Translations under genes and position numbers: made by a program
Shown here: positions 2,593-64,000 of the stretch, piece by piece
Numbering within the stretch: position 1 is the stretch's first letter
Layout of the letters: every line of letters starts with the position of its first letter
Origin: Eledone cirrhosa
Taxonomy: Eukaryota
Length of the DNA stretch: 64,000 bases
Direction: 5' to 3'
Assembly (NCBI GenBank): GCA_964016885.1
Contig: OZ024765.1
Span: forward strand, 4,092,001-4,156,000
Notes under the pieces: model-generated
What the model was told of the DNA's origin: nothing
Database searches by the model: none
Seen by the model: only the letters and a program-made list of their open reading frames with translations

Positions 2593-2710
<118 letters not shown>

Positions 2711-2867
2711 TATTGGTGCTCTGAAATAGTGATGTATACATGAATGTATGTATAATATATTTGGCAATATACTGTATGTTTAATTAAAAACATTTAGAAG
2801 ACTATTCGCTATTAGTTTTAAAGTAGTGACTAAGTCACTAACTTATTCTCAGTAAAAACAAGGGGGA

Positions 2868-2913
2868 GTGATAGACAGTCTGTTTCTCGCTTGTTACTGT
2901 TTATCAAGACCAC
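2868..2913 (-). ncRNA. Degenerate U3-A8 hammerhead motif in predicted XPD 3'UTR
   Basis: GUGGUC-UUGAUAA-ACAGU aaca AGCGA-GAAA-CAGACUG-UC^UAUCAC; stem II is mismatched. Confidence 0.45.
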
Positions 2914-3306
2914 TCACTCTCTTGCCTCTGCCGAGGGTTATAGAAGCTGGATTCTTATAGAATTCCAGCAATATTTAAGAGTTGATTAGTCACTACTTTA
3001 AAACTCATAGAGAATGGTCTTCAAAGTGTTTGTTCCTAAGTTGATATCCCTGAGGAATTCTTGCTGGCAATGGAGTCATTTATATTCTGAATAACTCTGG
3101 TGAGATGGACAGACACACTGACAGATGGTGGTTGTGGAGCTGATAGTGATGATGGTGGTGGTGTGGCTGATAGTGATGGTGGTGGGGCTGATAGTGATGA
3201 TGATGGTGGTAATGATAGTGATAGTGGTGGTGGTGGTTGTAGGGCTGGTAGTGATGATGGTGGTGGTGGTAGTGATGGTGGCAGGTATGTCAAAAAAACA
3301 CATTTT

Positions 3307-45443
<42,137 letters not shown>

Positions 45444-56562: not shown

Positions 56563-56662
56563 CGTCCACTCTGTATGTTAAGGAGTTTAAACAGCTCACA
56601 ACCATAACTGGAATTCTATAAGAATCTAGCTTCTCTAACTCCCAGTAGAAGCGAAGGAGTGT

Positions 56663-56709
56663 GTAGTCTTGATAACCACTAACAAGTGAGAAACGGCCCC
56701 ATCAATTAC
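56663..56709 (+). ncRNA. Degenerate U3-A8 hammerhead motif
   Basis: GUAGUC-UUGAUAA-C CACU aaca AGUG A-GAAA-CGGCCCCA-UC-AAUUAC; homologous to the 310-nt monomer. Confidence 0.5.
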
Positions 56710-56872
56710 TCCCTTTTGCTTTTGCCGAGACAAGGTATCTGATGTTACTCACTACTTTAAAATTCACAGCGAATGGCCTTCAAAATGTTTTCAAATAAAC
56801 ATACAGTATATTATTAAATATACTATACATACATTCATACATACATCACTATTTCAGAGAACCAATACTACT

Positions 56873-56953
<81 letters not shown>

Positions 56954-57185
56954 GACATATGTATGTATACATATATACACATATATATACATATATATAT
57001 ATATACAAACATATATATATATATTCATATATATACATATTTTTATATATATGCATATATATATATATAATGACATATGTATGTATATATATATACACAT
57101 ATATATATATACATATATATATATACAAACATATATATATATACATATATATATATATTCATATATATACATATTTTTATATATA

Positions 57186-57232
<47 letters not shown>

Positions 57233-57271
57233 TATATATGGTGAACTAACTGTTGTGGAACTACTTCTATC

Positions 57272-57317
<46 letters not shown>

Positions 57318-57356
57318 TATATATGGTGAACTAACTGTTGTGGAACTACTTCTATC

Positions 57357-57410
<54 letters not shown>

Positions 57411-57563
57411 ATAAATGCTCTGAAATAGCGATATATATGTGAATATAGACATAGAATATTCGAAAATATTCTGTATGTTTATAATAAACATTTTGAAGAC
57501 CTAATCGCTATAGAATAGAATACGTCACGTATTACAATTAGATTCTCGATAAAAGCAAGGGAA

Positions 57564-57606
57564 GTAATCTACGCGTTTCATTCTTGTTAGAAATCATCAG
57601 GACTAC
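57564..57606 (-). ncRNA. Minimal type-I hammerhead ribozyme (array copy 1)
   Basis: GUAGUC-CUGAUGA-U UUCU aaca AGAA U-GAAA-CGCG-UA^GAUUAC. Confidence 0.75.
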
Positions 57607-57873
57607 ATATCCAGTGCTTTTATCGAGAATGACACAGCTAGAGACTTATAGAATACTTAGCTGTGTACAGGAACTGGTTTGAAAGAGCGGTTGCCGGTCC
57701 GGCAGAAATTAGAAATTGGAATAAATGCTCTGAAATAGCGATATATATGTGAATATAGACATAGAATATTCGAAAATATTCTGTATGTTTATAATAAACA
57801 TTTTGAAGACCTAATCGCTATAGAATAGAATACGTCACGTATTACAATTAGATTCTCGATAAAAGCAAGGGAA

Positions 57874-57916
57874 GTAATCTACGCGTTTCATTCTTGTTAG
57901 AAATCATCAGGACTAC
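57874..57916 (-). ncRNA. Minimal type-I hammerhead ribozyme (array copy 2)
   Basis: Same motif, 310 nt from copy 1. Confidence 0.75.
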
Positions 57917-58367
57917 ATATCCAGTGCTTTTATCGAGAATGACACAGCTAGAGACTTATAGAATACTTAGCTGTGTACAGGAACTGGTTTGAAAGAGCGG
58001 TTGCCGGTCCGGCAGAAATTAGAAATTGGAATAAATGCTCTGAAATAGCGATATATATGTGAATATAGACATAGAATATTCGAAAATATTCTGTATGTTT
58101 ATAATAAACATTTTGAAGACCTAATCGCTATAGAATAGAATACGTCACGTATTACAATTAGATTCTCGATAAAAGCAAGGGAAGTAATCTACGAATATTT
58201 TCGAATATTCTATGTCTATATTCACATATATATCGCTATTTCAGAGCATTTATTCCAATTTCTAATTTCTGCCGGACCGGCAACCACTCTTTCAAACCAG
58301 TTCCTGTACACAGCTAAGTATTCTATAAGTCTCTAGCTGTGTCATTCTCGATAAAAGCACTGGATAT

Positions 58368-58410
58368 GTAGTCCTGATGATTTCTAACAAGAATGAAACG
58401 CGTAGATTAC
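58368..58410 (+). ncRNA. Minimal type-I hammerhead ribozyme (array copy 3)
   Basis: CTGATGA 58374-58380, GAAA 58395-58398, predicted cut after A58404. Confidence 0.75.
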
Positions 58411-58677
58411 TTCCCTTGCTTTTATCGAGAATCTAATTGTAATACGTGACGTATTCTATTCTATAGCGATTAGGTCTTCAAAATGTTTATTATAAACATA
58501 CAGAATATTTTCGAATATTCTATGTCTATATTCACATATATATCGCTATTTCAGAGCATTTATTCCAATTTCTAATTTCTGCCGGACCGGCAACCGCTCT
58601 TTCAAACCAGTTCCTGTACACAGCTAAGTATTCTATAAGTCTCTAGCTGTGTCATTCTCGATAAAAGCACTGGATAT

Positions 58678-58720
58678 GTAGTCCTGATGATTTCTAACAA
58701 GAATGAAACGCGTAGATTAC
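58678..58720 (+). ncRNA. Minimal type-I hammerhead ribozyme (array copy 4)
   Basis: Same motif. Confidence 0.75.
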
Positions 58721-58987
58721 TTCCCTTGCTTTTATCGAGAATCTAATTGTAATACGTGACGTATTCTATTCTATAGCGATTAGGTCTTCAAAATGTTTAT
58801 TATAAACATACAGAATATTTTCGAATATTCTATGTCTATATTCACATATATATCGCTATTTCAGAGCATTTATTCCAATTTCTAATTTCTGCCGGACCGG
58901 CAACCGCTCTTTCAAACCAGTTCCTGTACACAGCTAAGTATTCTATAAGTCTCTAGCTGTGTCATTCTCGATAAAAGCACTGGATAT

Positions 58988-59030
58988 GTAGTCCTGATGA
59001 TTTCTAACAAGAATGAAACGCGTAGATTAC
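58988..59030 (+). ncRNA. Minimal type-I hammerhead ribozyme (array copy 5)
   Basis: Same motif. Confidence 0.75.
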
Positions 59031-59209
59031 TTCCCTTGCTTTTATCGAGAATCTAATTGTAATACGTGACGTATTCTATTCTATAGCGATTAGGTCTTCA
59101 AAATGTTTATTATAAACATACAGAATATTTTCGAATATTCTATGTCTATATTCATATATATATATATATATAATATATAAGATCAAAAGATGGTTAAATG
59201 AGTTCCATA

Positions 59210-59280
59210 TATTTTATTATGCGCATTTCAAAAACAAATATCATCATGCAATAACATTTGTGTTTTCATCAGATAAAATA
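59210..59280 (-). ncRNA. Type-I hammerhead motif, long stem II
   Basis: UAUUUUAU-CUGAUGA-AAAc ACAAAUGUUAU ugcaug AUGAUAUUUGU uUUU-GAAA-UGCGCA-UA^AUAAAAUA. Confidence 0.65.
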
Positions 59281-59484
59281 GATATGAAGGTTAAATATAT
59301 CAGATAAAATAGATATGAAGGTTAAATATATCAGATAAAATGATATGAAGGTTAAAAACACTTGTGGATAGTGCAGTTTTAAATCAATATATATATATTA
59401 TGTATACTCCAGTCCTACAAATTGTAGAGTGCTTCTTATCCGATATCTGCATTGCTTTATTGTACTACAATAAAACTCACCTCC

Positions 59485-59538
<54 letters not shown>

Positions 59539-59599
59539 CATATATTTATACATACATATATATATATATATATACATATATATATACATACATAATATA

Positions 59600-60270
59600 C
59601 GTGAACGGCAAAGCATAAACGAACTAAGGACAAAATTAGAAATAAGAGGGATCAGATGTTGTTTACTCGAGAGAAGGCTACGCTGGTATGGTCACGTGAT
59701 GCGCATGAAAGTCGATAGCTGTATAACGAAGTGCAGGGCAATAAAGATAGACGGTAGCCACGGAATAGGCAGACCTAGAAAAACCTGGGACGAGCTGATA
59801 AACTCCGACCTCACACACTTACACCTCTCCAAGACAATGTCACTGGACCGAGACCTTTGGCGGTACTCAGTAACAGAGAAGACCCGCCTTACCTAAATAC
59901 ATAGTAAAACCTACTACAGCCAGTAGGCATCTCTAACAAAATACCCCCCCCCCCCCATCCACACCACCCCGTTCTATGAAAAGTTATGTTGGTGCCACAC
60001 CATCCAGGCCGAAACAAATGAGATCGTGTAGGTGTCACGACAAAAAAACACACAGTCCACGCTGTAATGTGGCCGTGTAGGCAACACGGTAAAAACCTCC
60101 CAGACCCACACTGTAAATGTGGTTGGTGTTAGGAAGGGCATCCAACTGTAGAAAACCCGCCAGACAGTCCTATGCGAGCAAGACAATCACTCTTGCCTCA
60201 AGTGGGAATACCCCCGTCCAAACCCATGCAAGCGTGGAACACGGACGTTAAACGTTGATGATGATGATGA
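59600..60270 (+). mobile_element. RTE LINE 3' end (ORF2 end + 3'UTR with 49-bp modules)
   Basis: [12 protein letters not shown]...GRPRKTWDE...EKTRLT*, poly-C, repeat modules, (GAT)n; homologues at 43608-44055 and 53160-53437. Confidence 0.82.
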
Positions 60271-60304
60271 TATATACATATATATATATATGTATATATT
60301 ATAC

Positions 60305-60336
<32 letters not shown>

Positions 60337-60559
60337 CATACAAACAAACAAACATTTATATATGTTGTTGAAGTTGGCTAATATCCTGTATTTGAATAAT
60401 AAATTATTAATTCTTGCTAGAGTGATTCTGGCCATTTAAGTCAGAACATTGTTCTCAGAAATGGTGCTTATGTTTTGAAAATGGCCCATAATTTTACAGG
60501 AAGAGTCTAATAATGAACTTAAAGTTGAATACATACAAACACACATACACTATATATAC

Positions 60560-60604
<45 letters not shown>

Positions 60605-61059
60605 TATATACATCTATAAATATATATACATCTATATACATGTACATACATATATATATATATATATGTATATTTATACGTACATATATACATACGTCTA
60701 TAAATATATATACATCTGTATACATATACATACATATATATACGTATATATATACATACACATATATATATATGTATACATATACCTACATATATAAATA
60801 TATGTATATATATACATACAAATATATATATACATATATGTGTATATATACCTACATTTATAAATATATGTATATACATACATATATACATACACACACA
60901 CACATGTGTGTGTATGTGTATATATATACATATATATATACATACATAAACATATATATATATATATATATATAATCATCATTACCTTCATCATCATTTT
61001 GACATCCATTTTTACATGCTCACATGGGTTATATATACATATATATAACCCATATATAC

Positions 61060-61093
<34 letters not shown>

Positions 61094-62007
61094 ACACTTA
61101 CATACACATATATATTATTATGTACATATAATAATATATAAGTGTATGTAAGTGTATATATATATATGTATATACACTTACATACACATATATATATGTA
61201 CATATATATATATATCATCATCATCACTGTTTAATGTCTATTTTTCCACGCTTACATGGGTCAGACGTGTTGCCATGTAATGACACAAATCTGTCTAAAA
61301 GACTTCACCTCCCCCCTATTTGCGACAAACCACTTTAGTGATCTCATAACCAACCTCTACAGCATCTGTTCCTGTTTCAAAAACCACAGGTCTGTAACTT
61401 CACAATAAAATCATGCCCGGTCCACTGATGAATGCAGAAAATTTTCAGGCATTTTAACATAGTTATAGGGTTCAGTTAACCCTTTAGCATTCACATTACT
61501 TTACATACTAATATAGGGGGGTGAATTGTATATATAAATAAAGAAGTATACATATATATCATCATCATCATCATCATCATCATTTTACGTCCACTTTTTC
61601 CCTGCTTGCAAGGGTGGGATGGAAACCGATTCTGGCTTGATTTCTACAGCTGGATGCCCTTCCTAACACCAACCTCATTTACAGTGAGTGCTGGGTGCTT
61701 TTTTTTCGTGGCACCTCCACGACCACTTTACAGTGTGGGCTGGGTACTTTTTTGCCGTGGCACTTCCACAACCACTTTTGCAGTGGAATGATAGGGACCC
61801 CAGTCCCTATCATCTCATTTCTACAGCTGAGTAAACTGGAGCAATGTGAAATAAAGTGCCTTGCTCAAGGAAACAACACATCACCCGGTCTTAGAATTGA
61901 ACTCACAACCTTTCGATTGTAAGGCCAATGCTCTAACCACTAAGCCATGTGCCTCCATGAATAAATATAAGAATGAATACATATATGTATATATATATAT
62001 ATATGTG

Positions 62008-62050
<43 letters not shown>

Positions 62051-62124
62051 GCACATATATATATACATATATATATTCATATATATACATATATCTATCT
62101 ATATACATACACACACATATATAT

Positions 62125-62162
<38 letters not shown>

Positions 62163-62198
62163 CGTATATATATATATATATATGTGTATATATATATG

Positions 62199-62232
<34 letters not shown>

Positions 62233-62307
62233 TATATATATACATATACATATATGTATTCATATATATACATATATCTATCTATATACATACACACACA
62301 TATATAT

Positions 62308-62363
<56 letters not shown>

Positions 62364-62372
62364 CATATATAT

Positions 62373-62410
<38 letters not shown>

Positions 62411-62891
62411 GGGATTCATTCATACTATAGAGAACACATCAAAGTATATTTGCTGGAGTGAGAGGAAAATTCAATACGTATCCATTAGAAAACTTCTGAA
62501 AAATACTTTTTAATGGCAAATGTTAAGAAAAAATATTTCTAGGAATGCTCAATTTTTTCCATATCTTCGACATTAACCTTACCTGCTGTTAGCTGTATGG
62601 TATTCATGTATTTATAAATACATCTTAAACTTACACTCTTATACATGAATATATATGTATGTATATATGTATATATATATATTATATATTTCGTTTCTGA
62701 ATTTGTTTAGCAAGATTCTTTATCTGAAAACGTGTGTTGAAACCGATATTGTTATACTTTGGGAGGGTCATGTTGCCAATAAGAAACACACGCACCAGTT
62801 GCTTTCACTTCAATTTATTATAATAAATTTATAAATTTAGGAATTTATAAATTTCCGGTTGGTTCCACAACCAGATGATTGTTTATATATT

Positions 62892-62934
62892 GTCAAAGTT
62901 CTTTCGTCACACATTCTGTGACCTCTTCAGTGAC
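62892..62934 (-). ncRNA. Minimal type-I hammerhead motif (further family)
   Basis: GUCA-CUGAAGA-G GUCACA gaaug UGUGAC-GAAA-GAAC-UU^UGAC. Confidence 0.6.
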
Positions 62935-63274
62935 TGGGGATTTTGTTTTTTGTTTTTGTGCCTCTCCTTTGTTCTGTCCTACGCCATCTTGTTTTTGTGT
63001 GTGTTGTGTGCTTAGTTTGCGCATGTGTTACATCTGGGTGTCTGTGTATGTTTATATTCATTTATTTATTTGTTTATTTACAAGTTACTGGTTGGTTGTT
63101 TGTTCTATGTGTGTGTGTGTTTTCATTTTGTCCTTAATTGTAAGTTGTGATGTTGCTGTTCCTGTTGTTGTCCTCAGCTCGTAATGGACATTTATACGGA
63201 ACAGGCTGTTCCATATAACCATGTCCATTACAAGCTGAGGAGCCGCTAAGGTGAACTAACTGTTGTGTAACCAC

Positions 63275-63332
<58 letters not shown>

Positions 63333-63458
63333 GAATGTATGTATTGTATATTTAATAATATACTGTATGTTTATTTAAAAACATTTTGAAGGCCTTTTGC
63401 TATGAATTTAAGGTAGTGACTATATTCACATACCTAACTTCAGCAAAAATAAAGGGAA

Positions 63459-63503
63459 ATAACTGATGACTGTTTCTCAATGTTTAGCGGTTATCAAGGT
63501 TAT
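63459..63503 (-). ncRNA. Degenerate U3-A8 hammerhead motif
   Basis: AUAACC-UUGAUAA-CCGCU aaac AUUGA-GAAA-CAGUCA-UC-AGUUAU, inside a ~312-nt repeat unit. Confidence 0.42.
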
Positions 63504-64000
63504 AAACCCCTCTGATTTTGCTGTGAATTATAAAATAGAAGTTGGATTCTTATAGAATACCAATCATGTTTGTGAGCTGTTTAAACTCATTAACATACAG
63601 AGTGGATGCCAAGCCAGCAACGATTAGAAATTTGTGTTCGTGCTCTGAAATAGTAATGTATATTTAATAACATACTGTATGTTTATTTAAAAACATTTTG
63701 AAGGCCTTTCTCTTTACTTTTGCTGAAGCTAGGTATGTGACTAAAAGGTCTTTAAAATGTTTTAAAATAAACATACAGTATATTATTAAATATGCAATAC
63801 AGACATTCATATATACATCGCTATTTCAGAACAGCAACACATATATTAAGAAGATAAATAATACATACATTCTTATATACATCGCTATTTCAGAGCACCA
63901 ACACACATATATATATATTAAGAAGATAAGGTAGTATTCATTTTCTGTTGGTAAAAATCAAACTTGTGGAGTGATTATGGATCTGTTAATAAAGGGGCAA

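Follow-up and report, generated by a model that had tools for sequence, protein, structure and literature searches.

Hammerhead-bearing repeats of Eledone cirrhosa with a U3-A8 core pair in several subfamilies and a probable reversion to C3-G8

Introduction

The metazoan non-long-terminal-repeat (non-LTR) retrozymes are described, in the passages of PMC7229834 and bioRxiv 10.64898/2026.07.22.740005 that concern them, as low-GC tandem units of ~300 nt with one type I hammerhead each, which encode no protein, range from monomers to long arrays and are proposed to depend on Penelope-like elements. All these features recur in the hammerhead-bearing repeats analyzed here, which lie in a stretch of 64,000 nt from Eledone cirrhosa (GenBank assembly GCA_964016885.1, contig OZ024765.1, positions 4,092,001 to 4,156,000; this whole stretch is called the window below) and were also searched for in the 3.0-Gb genome. 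The present repeats differ in the U3-A8 pair of their core and in the C·A and A·A states of 10.1·11.1, none of which appears in the retrozyme descriptions compared, and in being known from DNA copies, whereas circular RNA is a feature of the described retrozymes.

The U3-A8 pair as such is not new. An initial annotation of the window, which read three UUGAUAA cores as a compensatory change of CUGAUGA, implied a novelty that is overstated, since natural U3-A8 hammerheads have already been published (PMC3088659, PMC4209133). According to the relevant sections of PMC4209133, the Cercyon Penelope-like elements of Schistosoma mansoni show the same covariation and include ~1,300 hammerheads with a dimer-type helix III, which are missed by the standard descriptor. 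Those motifs are minimal, with a long helix II and a short helix I, and reside in pseudo-LTRs, whereas the present family has a canonical 6-bp helix I, a bulge, a 4-bp helix II and a 6-nt loop in stand-alone tandem units. Perreault 2011 (PMC3088659) likewise gives natural U3-A8 and a U10.1·U11.1 mismatch like that of our C3-G8 families Y and E; its examples are isolated; for 10.1·11.1 the passage in question mentions neither C·A nor A·A, and it is silent on switching within a lineage. The excerpts of PMC7151607, PMC3884650 and PMC2920678 say nothing of the 3-8 pair, and the literature searched, mostly papers outside subscription, contains no report of the present family or of within-lineage switching. 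Less ordinary than U3-A8 itself are the likely reversion in family E and the C·A and A·A at 10.1·11.1, which is normally G-C.

Results and Discussion

Genome-Wide Linkage of Positions 3 and 8

We conclude with good confidence that the repeats are mobile elements of ~320 nt, likely non-LTR retrozymes, whose type I hammerhead has U3-A8 fixed in several subfamilies. The single sister family proposed initially gives way to five subfamilies with U3-A8 as the majority state, namely A, B and C, represented in the window by the copies at 56663, 2868 and 63459, respectively, together with I and D, while families E and Y have C3-G8.

Every pattern search was accompanied by a reversed-pattern control, which gave 0 matches throughout, so that the UUGAUAA cores are not due to chance. 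The first pattern, in which positions 3, 7 and 8 were left open, has 31 exact matches in the genome, with U3 in 30, A8 in 30 and C3 in none. A pattern that excludes family Y returns 1,413 U3-A8, 869 C3-G8, 41 U3-G8 and 32 C3-A8 motifs, the pair being kept in 2,282 of 2,355 matches, and a broader one has 9,013 matches, from which 66 U3-A8, 3 U3-G8 and 2 C3-A8 were split off; the remainder was not divided by state, and the 100 listed are all C3-G8 members of family Y. The similarity search yielded 132 copies in 120 loci. Of these copies, 32 had an 80-mer in common with another and were dropped, most of them coming from one locus or from segmental duplicates, although a few are probably distinct. 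U-A occupies positions 3-8 in 88 of the 100 copies retained, and of 64 copies in an alignment, 61 preserve the pair. The mismatched U3-G8 and C3-A8 rows, which were listed in full, have for the most part the stems of D, E or a further repeat F, fitting decay of single copies, and no family with a mismatched 3-8 pair occurs among these matches. Independent variation of positions 3 and 8, the outcome that the initial annotation had named as contrary to its reading, was thus not seen, and U3-A8 is the family consensus, as it had claimed, rather than decay.

A U3·G8 wobble occurs in three copies of subfamily A, at L005 and L013 (G000:C3, 121.8 Mb and 124.5 Mb), which have a common helix III variant and are possibly a small transposed intermediate. 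Three U3-G8 matches at G000:C3:350059809-350063482, spaced by ~1.82 kb and on another stem, are probably an unrelated tandem repeat.

The Three Window Copies

The copies in the window are decayed insertions, each of a different subfamily (Table 1). UUGAUAA stands in place of CUGAUGA in all three, at 56669-56675 (+), 2907-2901 (-) and 63497-63491 (-), with GAAAC 14 nt after each. BLAST inside the window ties these copies to the CUGAUGA 310-nt arrays, with 71-80% identity over ~260 nt among the three and ~70% to the 310-nt units. The stem I variants GUAGU/AUUAC, GUGGU/AUCAC and AUAAC/GUUAU are present as reported. The claimed CACU/AGUG stem II is intact in the 56663 copy and fails in the other two, as two pairs are broken in the 2868 copy and one in the 63459 copy, where the loop also differs and reads UAAACA. 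The suggested ~312-nt period at the last site is real (63341-63397 matches 63653-63709), yet what is repeated is 57 nt of the 3' part, in which a second ribozyme is lacking.

That these copies are decayed, as first suspected, is borne out by their losses: G1.1 is absent from all three, so that the C2.1-G1.1 pair is broken in each, G16.2 is absent from two, and stem II pairs are broken in two. The fold energy of the 56663 copy is no better than that of shuffled sequences (z -1.7), while a D copy reaches z -9.2, a value inflated by its TA flank. Rfam gives no match for the decayed 56663 copy; an intact D copy is found weakly, aligning to RF02275 Hammerhead_HH9 with E=0.00039 and 24.5 bits, and family Y scores 19.2 bits against the same model. 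Hammerhead_HH9 has the same helix sizes and loop 2 as D and Y, both of which fall far below its gathering score of 52. In a whole-window Rfam scan, the matches listed (150 of 320 rows) are microsatellite-driven miRNA matches below threshold.

Table 1. Positions of the element copies, their hammerheads and related arrays in the window.
Feature	Position	Strand	Remarks
Subfamily A element copy	56565-56864	+	~300 nt, non-coding; 3' end runs into (CA)n/(TA)n
Subfamily A decayed type I hammerhead	56663-56709	+	U3-A8; G1.1 and G16.2 gone; C10.1·A11.1 in helix II
Helix I of the 56663 hammerhead	56663-56668	+
Core U3-U4-G5-A6-U7-A8-A9	56669-56675	+
GAAA	56690-56693	+
Predicted cut	after 56703	+
Subfamily B element copy	2700-2990	-	tail adjoins (TA)n; short inverted fragment 2986-3031
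Subfamily B decayed hammerhead	2868-2913	-	U3-A8, A10.1·A11.1; two stem II pairs and G1.1 gone
Subfamily C element copy	63323-63620	-	end abuts (TA)n directly
Subfamily C decayed hammerhead	63459-63503	-	U3-A8, C10.1·A11.1; G1.1, G16.2 and one stem II pair gone
5'-truncated tandem fragment and inverted fragments	63653-63914		tandem fragment 63653-63709, offset 312; no second ribozyme
Family Y, young C3-G8 relative	57400-59163		head-to-head inverted 310-nt arrays, five CUGAUGA cores

Ribozyme Architecture and Covariation

The family majority sequences have the canonical type I layout, with a 6-bp helix I, a 3-nt bulge, a long outer stem, a 4-bp helix II, a 6-nt loop and a short helix III. The core N3-U4-G5-A6-N7-N8-A9...G12-A13-A14, with A15.1-U16.1 and H17, is found in the majority sequences of six families. 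Relevant to a possible tertiary contact between loops 1 and 2 are the bulge, the A that closes the 6-nt loop 2, and U1.7, which may take part in it and is present in five of six families. The helix III segments are self-complementary or nearly so, the duplex between two of them being worth -6.9 to -20.1 kcal/mol, as compared to 0 to -2 for the hairpin.

As the initial annotation stated, the stems covary, and this holds for helices I and II between subfamilies. In an alignment of 64 of the 97 available rows, whose relatedness inflates the scores, 84.7% of the stem cells are paired, against 78.5% in shuffles and 23-46% in slid registers, and both sides have changed in 105 cells and in 8 of 14 pairs. 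In the majority sequences of A, B, C and Y, helix I retains every one of its six pairs. Position 10.2-11.2 of D is C-G in 13 and U-A in 7 of 20 copies, paired in every one, and no mixed row occurs among the 100 of 553 D matches listed.

Position 10.1·11.1 is unpaired in 63 of the 64 aligned rows. Subfamilies A and C carry C·A there, subfamilies B and I carry A·A, and Y and E have either U·U or A-U; the expected pair, usually G-C and highly conserved though not absolute, is found as G-C in D. A11.1 mismatches occur only with U3-A8, and U11.1 only with C3-G8.

Subfamily Ages and Arrays

Mean divergence from the family majority is 7-9% for A, B and C, measured with ragged ends, 4% for E and 2% for D; when selected rows are trimmed, Y comes to 0.2%, D to 1.1% and E to 3%, while A, B, C and I range over 3.6-5.2%, all of these values being biased low because the copies were chosen as best or exact matches. 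Subfamily D is young, with at least 553 exact copies (matches to a 34-nt pattern). One D array has 17.3 units with a period of 318 nt, and of the 16 cores found in it, some of them decayed, none has C3 or G8. Subfamilies A, B and C occur for the most part as single units accompanied by partial tandems. Y occurs in tandem arrays. An insertion of subfamily C is repeated at many loci, its inversion breakpoint being identical in them (L100-L118; C4, C10, C18, C23, C26, C28), which suggests segmental duplication or carriage inside a larger repeat.

Number and Direction of the Core-Pair Switches

A tree was calculated with positions 3 and 8 masked and the flanks trimmed; of 54 rows, 50 entered it, four having been omitted as truncated or deleted. 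At the family level, I, D and E form a group with 100/100 support inside B, among the U3-A8 families, and E differs from the U3-A8 subfamily I by 6.7%. We consider it probable that the pair switched two or more times, including a reversion to C3-G8 in E.

The chief alternative, possible although rather unlikely in our judgment, is that the core switched only once, the U3-A8 families having a common ancestry and E being an ancestral C3-G8 lineage related to Y, all with active ribozymes. Y is a long branch that has U11.1 in common with E, and neither a Y+E clade, which costs 17.5 log-likelihood units, nor a single switch is rejected by the approximately unbiased (AU) test (p=0.062), and the same holds for D grouped with I (p=0.20). 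The best tree of the 50 rows, however, requires 3 changes, and at the 53 sites where A and E differ, Y is closer to A (29 matches) than to E (14). In addition, the regression of root-to-tip distance on family divergence favors a position of the root close to A/C, where r is about -0.85 to -0.88 once Y is left out, over a position on E, where r is about 0. Earlier trees that nested D inside E, and AU p values of about 1e-4 in favor of several switches, were discarded because some rows ran into the flanking (TA)n.

Returning to repeated switching, we see roughly even chances that the lineage crossed the 3-8 fitness valley repeatedly and reversibly, from C-G to U-A and back and possibly a third time, with 10.1·11.1 coupled to it.

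Mobility and Insertion Anatomy

The shared sequence is limited to ~300 nt over 60 loci and has no common open reading frame (ORF); the D unit has 34% GC. Among 125 distinct 3' ends, 76 are tailed, 21 pass straight into (AT)n and 28 are of other kinds, and a TA run stands close behind 31 of the 76 tails. Copies are accompanied by 5'-truncated tandem pieces and head-to-head inverted pieces, and the family Y array in the window has a ~28-nt tail at its left end only and (TA)n at both ends. The insertions thus show Penelope-type anatomy, with 5'-truncated partial tandems, an inverted copy, a one-sided tail and microsatellite targets, as in the corresponding section of PMC8557442, because of which the elements are likely non-LTR retrozymes moved by a Penelope-like element. 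No ORF with reverse transcriptase and GIY-YIG linked to the repeat is common within 1.5 kb of the copies.

At ~62700-63200 (-) of the window lies a repeat that resembles a Penelope pseudo-LTR and contains a separate CUGAAGA hammerhead motif (core at 62930). A query over it matched 22 of 170 loci, some only via short flanking pieces, and in L055 it follows a GIY-YIG fragment (Pfam E=0.0005, below cutoff). It has nothing in common with the elements beyond TA runs, so that a role as their mobilizer finds no support.

Proposed Mechanism and Alternatives

The observed anatomy, subfamily structure, 3-8 linkage, stem covariation and insertion pattern can be accommodated in the following scheme. Tandem units would be transcribed, as the consulted retrozyme work suggests (PMC7229834; bioRxiv 10.64898/2026.07.22.740005), and the self-complementary helix III segments of neighboring units would pair to give a dimeric ribozyme, a model taken from the pertinent part of PMC4209133. 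The predicted hammerhead would then cut the multimeric transcripts into unit-length RNAs, and the monomers may circularize and be reverse-transcribed into (TA)n targets. Selection would act on the source elements while dispersed copies decay. The 3-8 pair would have changed in concert, likely at least twice, including the reversion in E; mismatched intermediates probably survived because a neighboring intact core could cut the unit in a dimer.

Several findings weigh against this scheme. Most A, B and C copies hold one ribozyme only, and there is no homology between the elements and the one adjacent Penelope repeat compared. The copy counts are not independent, as few founder events (only 2-3 changes) underlie them. 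The 8 pairs that change on both sides do not exceed the shuffle control (126 of 500), U·U pairs occur in helix I of D and E, and the 10.1·11.1 mismatches of A, B, C and I, which are C·A or A·A, should weaken the ribozyme. Moreover, the initial statement that U3-A8 rescues catalysis depends on context: according to the pertinent part of PMC9901934, a study by pairwise mutagenesis, only the G-C swap rescued the pair in a type III construct, other double mutants having low activity, while PMC3088659 states at second hand, citing its ref. 32, that U3-A8 is active in vitro.

Some of these points would also suit a different explanation, which we regard as unlikely, that the U3-A8 families are weak or dead passengers, cut in trans by C3-G8 relatives or uncut, whose hairpin is kept for RNA structure or recognition by reverse transcriptase. 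It would agree with the finding in one construct that double mutants apart from the G-C swap have low activity (PMC9901934), the mismatched 10.1·11.1 of A, B, C and I, the poor in vitro cleavage of minimal Penelope hammerheads in the section of PMC4209133 on them, and a long outer hairpin that is conserved anyway. On the other hand, the unpaired core letters U4, G5, A6, A9, G12, A13 and A14 stay the majority in every family, although only 81 of 196 shared columns are invariant, no family among the pattern matches has a mismatched 3-8 pair, and the helix I arms are not the same from one family to the next, presumably an obstacle to cutting between families.

Neutral decay in dead copies, by CpG loss at C7-G8 together with C-to-T change, would be helped by the C7 present in 41 of 47 A copies and by CpG decay of 18-27%, but is refuted, and in our view hardly conceivable, because U3-A8 is fixed in the young family D (19 of 20 copies, about 2% from the majority). 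A8 is also present in subfamilies A (43 of 47 copies), B (26 of 27) and C (20 of 20), and U7 in B, C and D. The argument of the initial annotation that neither site is a CpG fails for subfamily A, because C7-G8 would form one; its conclusion stands on other grounds, A8 being fixed far above the CpG decay rate.

Other Repeats and Motifs

Two further C3-G8 hammerhead repeats were noted, F (L152-L155), with a period of about 480-490 nt, U10.1·U11.1 and a CUAG helix III, and G (L156-L159 and L170), with a canonical GUCC/GGAC helix II. A motif scan of the window also gave hammerhead-like cores at 31590, 12716 and 11973 (-) and at 16646, 43262, 45072 and 40784 (+), some with clear stem II pairing. 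A near-perfect inverted repeat of ~45 bp lies at 40791-40890, and long strand-skewed minisatellite arrays occupy 17340-21371 and 23362-28349, with units of 77-88 nt and 42 nt.

Conclusions

The feature is real, and the compensatory reading of the UUGAUAA cores is largely right, yet the variant is a known one. What the present analysis adds is a family, D, that is both young and intact, together with the mismatches at 10.1·11.1 and a reversion that is likely. Retrozyme surveys based on CUGANGA would miss more than 1,400 motifs in the Eledone cirrhosa genome. Side by side in one genome, the repeats supply natural families whose differences lie at 3-8 and 10.1·11.1; the series is dated, and its young intact copies number in the hundreds. 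This series allows one to test how a double compensatory change in the core spreads and reverts, and whether the odd 10.1·11.1 mismatches work in extended dimeric hammerheads. If the proposed history is true, nature would have set up, in the sibling families I and E, an experiment on epistasis in the ribozyme core and on the rescue of mismatched intermediates in dimers.

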